64,000 nt of DNA, taken from assembly GCF_003334815.1 (NCBI RefSeq), contig NZ_QOWO01000005.1. One strand, given 5' to 3'. The DNA is from Escherichia coli (GTDB lineage Bacteria > Pseudomonadota > Gammaproteobacteria > Enterobacterales > Enterobacteriaceae). The position numbers and the translations under genes are program-made. Within the stretch, counting starts at the first letter, position 1, and the number at the start of each line of letters is the position of its first letter. Of the stretch, positions 10,590-11,204 are shown in pieces. The notes below the pieces were generated by a model that was not told the DNA's origin, did no database searches, and saw only the letters and a program-made list of their open reading frames with translations.

Positions 10590-11204
10590 GATTGTCTGCT
10601 CCCCTGTCTTGTTATGGGAGCAGTATTCAGGAATAAAAACATTCATTAAAAGAATTAGTCGTTATCGCACAGATGATTTTATTCTTAGCAAAAAAACGGC
10701 TAAGGAAAGATTAAATATGCAATTACTCCGTTCTAACAATTGGGAAAATTACTACACTTCATTTTAGTGATGCATAAACAACCACATTACGAGATTTATT
10801 ACTTCATTATTTCTATCAATATCAATACATATAATAAAACTATTATATTCGCATTGTATATATCACTGTATCATTCTCAATCACTCGCATATTACATTCA
10901 CATAATGTATATAAACAATGCTTGTTCACAGAACATATTTTTTAAATGCAATTAATTGACAAACTAAATCACATCTAAATACAATGTATAAAACAAAATA
11001 ACTATACATACCAAACATACAAACACTTAACATATGAATTGCATAGAAACATTACCCAGTCGAACCCACGGGTCTGAAAGCCCTTGCTTTTCAGTTATTA
11101 GCAACATTTAACATTTATAAATTAACATCTGGCTGCGCCAGAGATTACGTCTCTGAGTGCATCGTTGTGCTTGTAGTATAATAAATAAAATGGAGTGTCA
11201 TTAA

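Follow-up and report, generated by a model that had tools for sequence, protein, structure and literature searches.

The divergently transcribed genes tauA and yaiS of Escherichia coli are separated by a very AT-rich spacer, and the locus raises the question of what this DNA does: whether it keeps the genes from yaiS to yaiO quiet, serves the tau operon, carries a transcribed leader, or is merely unconstrained DNA at a junction. The analysis was carried out on the window, the whole stretch of 64,000 nucleotides, whose orientation is the reverse of the K-12 map. Positions 10590–11204 proved to be exactly the whole tauA/yaiS intergenic region (615 bp), and all of the genes said in the preliminary description to lie around it, the yaiS-yaiP-yaiX-yaiO cluster on one side and the divergent tau genes on the other, were confirmed:

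9627–10589, minus strand: tauA, which opens the tauABCD operon (320 aa); its ATG is at 10589 and transcription leads away from the spacer
11205–14416, plus strand: the yaiS-yaiP-yaiX-yaiO (yaiSPXO) cassette, 47.8% GC, with the GTG of yaiS at 11205

A K-12 derivative has exactly the same spacer sequence (100% identity), and RefSeq places tauA and yaiS on its flanks there and nothing between them.

Base composition of the spacer

The description of the interval as very AT-rich was fully borne out. Its GC content is 30.4% (A230 C110 G77 T198) against 52.0% in the window, which is the lowest of all 615-bp stretches in the 64 kb; sliding 615-bp windows with equally low values make up 0.09% of the total, and every one of them overlaps the spacer. 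The AT content, 69.6% in the full 615 bp and 75.4% in the 309-bp core compared with 48% in the window, is of the order that marks an H-NS-silenced xenogeneic locus. No 300-bp stretch of the 64 kb has less GC than the one beginning at 10745 (24%), and the spacer can be divided into three parts:

10590–10742: tauA-proximal part, 34% GC
10743–11051: AT-rich core, 24.6% GC
11052–11204: yaiS-proximal part, 38.6% GC

The spacer is richer than the window in TpA steps (11.4 versus 4.6 per 100 bp) and in A/T runs of at least four (19.5/kb versus 9.2/kb). Compared with mononucleotide shuffles of its own sequence, it shows no such enrichment: 12 A/T runs versus 11.7, 70 TpA steps versus 74, and 10 TATA occurrences versus 8.9. 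The repeated TATA-like and poly-A/T blocks that had been described are therefore present, but only as frequent as base composition predicts. They are also not repeats in the strict sense, as the spacer contains no direct-repeat families and just two marginal short tandem repeats.

Curvature prediction, which had been proposed as a check, gave no support to a specially shaped DNA. The mean intrinsic curvature of the spacer, computed from wedge angles, is 6.8 deg/turn against 6.5 in the window and lies below that of mononucleotide shuffles (8.0); 33% of 615-bp windows are curved at least as much. Periodicity of AA/TT near 10–11 bp is absent from the spacer, with the strongest period at 13.7 bp, and the sequence does not resemble the curved, phased A-tract DNA at which H-NS nucleates. 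A search for the TCGATAAATT-type 10-bp motif, which we take to be a high-affinity H-NS site, found no match with zero or one mismatch in the spacer and two with two mismatches (10950–10959 and 11114–11123), compared with about 0.8 expected from the window-wide rate. Since there is neither a strong motif match nor exceptional curvature, no H-NS nucleation site can be identified in the spacer.

Other spots in the window are likewise AT-rich and dense in promoter-like sites. These are 5365–5980, upstream of hemB (26% GC over 300 bp), 49450–49920 in the yahK/yahL region, which has the top promoter-like density of the window (17 sites per 309 bp), and 61500–62150 in the betT/pdeL spacer (28% GC). 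In complete E. coli genomes, the best BLAST matches to 10590–11204, 48900–50600 and 60800–62800 are broken by IS1, IS2 or IS5, which suggests that these three AT-rich tracts are frequent targets of IS insertion.

The AT-rich core as a promoter island

The catalogue of K-12 promoter islands comprises 78 regions, each 300 bp or longer and enriched in potential transcription start points (Panyukov and Ozoline 2013; PMC3661553). One of them, island 383994_309 (383994–384302 in U00096.2), is 309 bp long and listed as intergenic between yaiS(-) and tauA(+) (PMC3661553). In the same study it was scored as bound by H-NS "according to all studies" compiled there (Grainger, Kahramanoglou and Oshima; ChIP-chip and ChIP-seq) and as foreign DNA by three predictors (PMC3661553). 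As a class, promoter islands bind RNA polymerase, form open complexes and yield abortive oligonucleotides, with little full-length RNA (PMC3661553).

On the window, island 383994–384302 corresponds to 10743–11051, which is the GC minimum found independently from composition. The mapping assumes that the offset between U00096.2 and U00096.3 is 776 bp. The remainder of the chain runs through coordinates of the K-12 derivative and those given for ykiC, which supply the offset to U00096.3 (PMC6001520). Among the possible mappings, just 10743–11051 keeps the island intergenic, in agreement with its listing (PMC3661553).

The density of promoter-like sites, judged by a simple hexamer scan and not by PlatProm scoring, points the same way: the core has 35.6 sites per kb against 5.6 in the window and falls within the top 1% of 309-bp windows. 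The core thus belongs to the promoter islands both as a listed region and by its hexamer density, and it shares their association with horizontally acquired genes. Its site count (11 observed) is at the shuffle expectation (12.4 +/- 4.0), so that composition is the cause of the crowding.

Binding of both proteins has also been reported in vitro. Genomic SELEX placed an RpoD-holoenzyme site and an H-NS site in the yaiS/tauA spacer (Shimada 2014; PMC3946193), and a peak for the RpoS holoenzyme was found at 383868 (Shimada 2017; PMC5493296), which maps to about 11177, at a TATAAT hexamer close to yaiS. Xenogeneic silencing of the cluster, as proposed in the preliminary description, holds up well on the side of H-NS binding and foreign status, both of which are published (PMC3661553, PMC3946193), and on that of cassette mobility, considered below; the silencing step itself would follow from the binding. 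H-NS-type silencing is in this sense well supported as binding, and from that binding we infer repression of yaiS-yaiO.

A search of the literature covered here turned up no measurements of yaiS-yaiO expression in hns or hns stpA mutants. The locus-specific expression data that the literature search returned are confined to yaiP, whose mRNA is about 2.9-fold up in an rpoZ mutant (PMC5811629), and to an antisense RNA inside yaiP, which served as a control reporter (PMC4666370). In the appY promoter island, studied by the Ozoline group, RNA polymerase interference rather than the strength of H-NS binding may be responsible for silencing (PMC7054387).

The explanation that we hold with good confidence is that the spacer combines the tau promoter with an AT-rich platform belonging to the yaiSPXO cassette, and that this platform draws in H-NS and unproductive RNA polymerase by composition alone, with yaiSPXO kept quiet as a result. 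About 135 bp at the tauA side would constitute an activator-dependent tau promoter, and the remainder would be part of a horizontally mobile cassette, comprising the 309-bp core and the yaiS-proximal segment with its conserved TATAAT promoter. The core would owe both its crowding with promoter-like hexamers and its standing as a preferred substrate of H-NS to base composition alone. Filaments of H-NS and unproductively bound RNA polymerase would then occupy the core and hold transcription of yaiSPXO low.

Mobility of the yaiSPXO cassette and of its upstream DNA

The four genes encode a PIG-L deacetylase, a GT2 glycosyltransferase of the PgaC/IcaA-like type, a hexapeptide acetyltransferase and the YaiO outer-membrane barrel; all of these family matches lie below curated cut-offs, and the best NCBIfam match of the GT2 protein is PgaC/IcaA. 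By predicted gene content, yaiSPXO resembles a compact synthase-dependent exopolysaccharide module.

With YaiP as query against one genome of each species, seven loci were recovered in six species, namely E. whittamii, Citrobacter sp. FP75, C. braakii (two copies), Superficieibacter, an Ignatzschineria MAG and Lysobacter pythonis. Homologues of yaiS, yaiP, yaiX and yaiO occur in the same order at all seven, and E. whittamii alone among them has the tauA/frmR context. The neighbours of the cassette elsewhere are as follows:

Citrobacter sp. FP75: a MauG-like gene and fimbrial genes
C. braakii, copy a: an integrase-like (tyrosine-recombinase-like) gene and fimbrial genes
C. braakii, copy b: hemB and a UhpA-like regulator
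Superficieibacter: tRNA-Arg(CCT), directly abutting
Ignatzschineria MAG: a divergent EAL c-di-GMP phosphodiesterase gene
Lysobacter: parE

The tRNA-Arg(CCT) in Superficieibacter and the recombinase-like gene beside copy a of C. braakii are marks of island-type integration. Judged by these differing contexts, yaiSPXO is a mobile four-gene cassette. A tRNA or att remnant was sought in the E. coli spacer as well and rejected, as the spacer shows no similarity to the Superficieibacter tRNA-Arg, with a best local score (17) lower than the mean of shuffles.

At all loci except that of Lysobacter, yaiS is preceded by a spacer of 412–638 bp with 30–39% GC and 200-bp minima of 17–28.5%, which is below both the cassette (38–48% GC) and the flanks (41–54% GC). 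The upstream GC dip of the single Lysobacter copy is weak. No similarity between the spacers of different genera was detectable, though the cassettes can be aligned along all of their 3.2 kb with 66–86% identity; even two Citrobacter copies with cassettes 86% identical have just 30 nt of spacer in common. As far as these alignments indicate, it is the length and AT-richness of the spacer, and not its sequence, that are conserved across genera. A silencer that reads composition, as H-NS does, would select for this pattern, which also fits rapid AT-biased decay of DNA under no constraint.

Conservation and replacement of the spacer within Escherichia

In 5,426 complete E. coli genomes, the spacer falls into two discrete classes, one of at least 95% identity (3,785 records) and one of 80–90% (1,039 records). 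Compared with O150:H6 and E. whittamii, it is about 85% identical, with parts that fall to 74–78%, versus 92–100% in the flanking genes. Three-way identity among the alleles of the window, O150:H6 and E. whittamii is lowest at 10790–10839 (54%) and 11040–11089 (63%). It reaches 90–92% over 10940–11039, 84% at 11140–11189, a block that includes a perfect TATAAT, and 92% at 11190–11239.

The O145:H28 genome has, between tauA and frmR, a different 8-kb island in place of yaiSPXO, with genes for a response regulator, a MASE1 histidine kinase, uhpC and an ABC transporter. The interval between tauA and frmR (10628–14600 in the window) is a replacement hot spot, occupied by either yaiSPXO or this island. 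The spacer upstream of tauA in O145:H28 is 302 bp long, has 44% GC and is devoid of the AT-rich tract; because of this, the tract belongs with yaiSPXO and not with tau. In C. braakii, copy b of yaiSPXO lies between hemB and the UhpA-like regulator, so that both of the tauA-frmR cargoes are adjacent there.

These comparisons bear directly on the alternative that the spacer is a passive junction, in which unconstrained edge DNA drifted to high AT, and the binding of H-NS and RNA polymerase is a by-product of no regulatory consequence for yaiSPXO or tau. Every sequence feature of the spacer is at its composition-matched expectation, H-NS motif enrichment and curvature are both lacking, and turnover of the tract is rapid within Escherichia and complete between genera. 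AT-biased mutation could yield such spacers, and this one diverges faster than its flanks. Passive drift accounts poorly for the repeated presence of a 412–638-bp spacer with a deep GC minimum, seen in all five enterobacterial contexts and again in the Ignatzschineria MAG although its sequence has turned over completely. It also leaves unexplained why the blocks 10940–11039 and 11140–11189 are conserved while their neighbours fall to 54–63%, and why the DNA that replaces the spacer in O145:H28 has 44% GC. A purely passive junction is accordingly unlikely, though it deserves to be kept in mind alongside the silencing platform.

Promoters of yaiS and its start region

Two promoter-like sites directed towards yaiS and a short reading frame in front of it are the main features of this side of the spacer:

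10956–10985, plus strand: distal yaiS promoter candidate, TTGACA-18-TACAAT, 11/12 matches to the sigma-70 consensus, with a predicted start at about 10992
11153–11182, plus strand: proximal yaiS promoter candidate, CTGAGT-18-TATAAT, with a perfect -10 at 11177–11182 and a weak -35
11190–11207, plus strand: five-codon mini-ORF ATG GAG TGT CAT TAA, with the Shine–Dalgarno sequence GGAG at 11192–11195 and the yaiS GTG (11205) directly after

The sequence TTGACA-18-TACAAT has been listed for yaiS and TTGAGA-16-TACAAT for tauA (PMC3946193), and our own scan finds both hexamer pairs, at 10956–10985 on the plus strand and at 10880–10853 on the minus strand. The distal promoter sits within the best-conserved non-coding block (10940–11039). 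The proximal one is conserved in all three Escherichia alleles, with a predicted start near 11189, and a transcript from there would have a leader of about 16 nt with GGAG nine bases 5' of the GTG.

At the start of the gene, the O150:H6 allele has AAA in place of the mini-ORF TAA, and RefSeq begins yaiS at the mini-ORF ATG there. The Citrobacter copies of yaiS have an apparent TTG start at the equivalent position.

The preliminary description called the whole interval a leader. The term does not fit, as a conserved TATAAT promoter stands only some 16 nt before the start codon; nor does the putative long 5' UTR show an Rfam match or a structure signal. The corresponding explanation, a long transcribed yaiS 5' leader beginning at about 10992 and exerting control at the RNA level (as a riboswitch, an attenuator or an sRNA-like element), draws on the near-consensus quality of the distal promoter and its place in the best-conserved block. 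It can also point to a hairpin-like CTGAAAG-N6-CTTTTCAG at 11064–11084, which lies 70–90 nt downstream of the predicted distal start, could be the end of a short transcript, and is partly kept in the three Escherichia alleles, with a perfect 7-bp stem in E. whittamii and a weaker one in O150:H6. Against this, an Rfam scan of 10300–11500 at E <= 1 gave no match, and a scan of the seven related loci at gathering threshold returned one tRNA and naRNA4 twice, all of them outside the spacers upstream of the cassette. The putative 224-nt leader was rejected as a structured element, its fold being no better than that of shuffles (z = -0.50). With no sequence conservation between genera either, the spacer does not look like a structured 5' leader or riboswitch, and the conserved TATAAT promoter makes a long leader unnecessary. 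RNA-level control from such a leader is therefore very improbable.

Several other candidates in the spacer were tried and rejected. A terminator-like hairpin at 11128–11142 has one pair that changes on both sides in O150:H6 in a non-compensatory manner. The two longest open reading frames (71 and 74 aa) have no NCBIfam match, and a 25-codon ORF at 11033 is frameshifted in the O150:H6 allele.

A more speculative reading assigns a role to the conserved block 10940–11039 within the silencing platform. Its promoter might drive a short unannotated transcript, from about 10992 to 11064–11084, which would act as a decoy or sRNA, or whose synthesis would open the H-NS filament and turn yaiSPXO on; in a wider sense, the tract might be a composition-selected "portable silencer", regenerated in each host with no conservation of sequence. 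We consider this reading unlikely.

The tau side of the spacer

The features on the tauA side are the following:

10590–10627, minus strand: 38 bp comprising the tauA 5' UTR, the Shine–Dalgarno sequence GGGGAG and a probable -10 segment of the putative promoter
10682–10700, minus strand: 19-bp block TTCTTAGCAAAAAAACGGC, a candidate Cbl/CysB activator site of the tau promoter
10853–10880, minus strand: tau-directed promoter-like site TTGAGA-16-TACAAT, whose -11 A is lost in O150:H6 and E. whittamii

The tau promoter is reportedly dependent on Cbl and CysB, and the TTCTTAGCAAAAAAACGGC block may be a site through which they act. The 38 bp next to the tauA ATG are identical in O145:H28, where everything further upstream differs apart from the 19-bp block, which is 16/19 identical at the same offset from the ATG (p ~0.03 by score alone). 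The core and the block are all that the two spacers share, the promoter DNA between them differs, and the TauA proteins are identical. The tau promoter would accordingly extend over approximately 10590–10725 (about 135 bp), and the DNA beyond about 10725 would be that of the yaiS cassette. A 12-nt inverted repeat at 10631–10642 and 10673–10684 (92% complementary, 30-bp spacer) is another candidate Cbl/CysB site. Because its -11 A is lost in the two other alleles, the tau-directed site at 10853–10880 is probably not a functional tau promoter and would be one of many chance sites.

That the AT-rich tract mainly serves the tau operon, as activator-binding or UP-element-like DNA upstream of the Cbl/CysB-dependent promoter, is suggested by its contiguity with that promoter and by the site at 10880–10853 pointing to tauA, but this is the least probable of the alternatives and can be set aside: O145:H28 has the same TauA, 38-bp core and 19-bp block without the tract, the tau-directed site loses its key -11 A in other alleles, and the tract accompanies yaiSPXO in genomes with no adjacent tau operon.

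Intact and damaged cassettes

Silencing had also been offered as the reason why the cluster has stayed cryptic. It may contribute, but it is not the sole cause in K-12, where crypticity has a simpler one, because yaiS is interrupted by an amber codon and yaiX by an IS2 insertion, so that two of the four cassette genes are broken. The change in yaiS is CAG to TAG at the equivalent of window position 11760 (codon 186) and leaves a product of 185 aa; the window strain, O150:H6 and E. whittamii all have CAG at this codon (223 aa). All four genes are intact in the window strain (yaiS 223 aa, yaiP 398 aa, yaiX 236 aa and yaiO 257 aa).

The 3' end of yaiS is the site of a second local divergence peak, at 11700–11799, with 79% identity to O150:H6 versus 91–97% on either side. 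A small gene, ykiC, is annotated antisense at the same end.

The core is an H-NS-bound promoter island that has been catalogued since 2013, and the finding is thus correct, ordinary and already known: a textbook-style AT-rich, H-NS-bound promoter island before acquired genes, to which the analysis adds little beyond confirmation. The modest addition is comparative, in that a long AT-rich upstream spacer is kept in at least five independent enterobacterial contexts with its sequence wholly replaced, which is expected if composition rather than sequence matters. Finding the cryptic exopolysaccharide-like product would call for a strain with intact genes rather than K-12, together with relief of the presumed silencing, for instance in an hns background or by promoter replacement.

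Comparison with known systems

The Cbl/CysB-activated tauABCD promoter corresponds to the tauA-proximal 135 bp or so, in which the core and the 19-bp block are conserved though the neighbouring island differs. This promoter takes up no more than roughly one fifth of the 615 bp; at 34% GC, it is the least AT-rich part except for the yaiS-proximal end.

As regards its products, yaiSPXO resembles operons of the pgaABCD type in pairing a PgaC/IcaA-like GT2 enzyme with a deacetylase, an acetyltransferase and an outer-membrane barrel. It differs from them in that its deacetylase is of the PIG-L and not the PgaB type, its barrel is YaiO and not PgaA, and its matches are below curated cut-offs.

With the loci subject to xenogeneic silencing by H-NS, such as appY, bgl, LEE and SPI-1, the locus shares AT-rich DNA in front of a patchily distributed cassette of lower GC, as well as H-NS occupancy reported in vivo and in vitro. 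Those loci have a known counter-silencer and inducing condition and are known to be derepressed when hns is mutated, whereas yaiSPXO is likened to them by binding and composition.

The closest likeness is to the promoter islands of K-12 described by Shavkunov, Panyukov and Ozoline, among which the core itself is listed, and with which it shares AT-richness, promoter density, reported binding of RNA polymerase and H-NS, and proximity to foreign genes. It differs from them in nothing of kind; the window strain has an intact downstream cassette, and K-12 does not.
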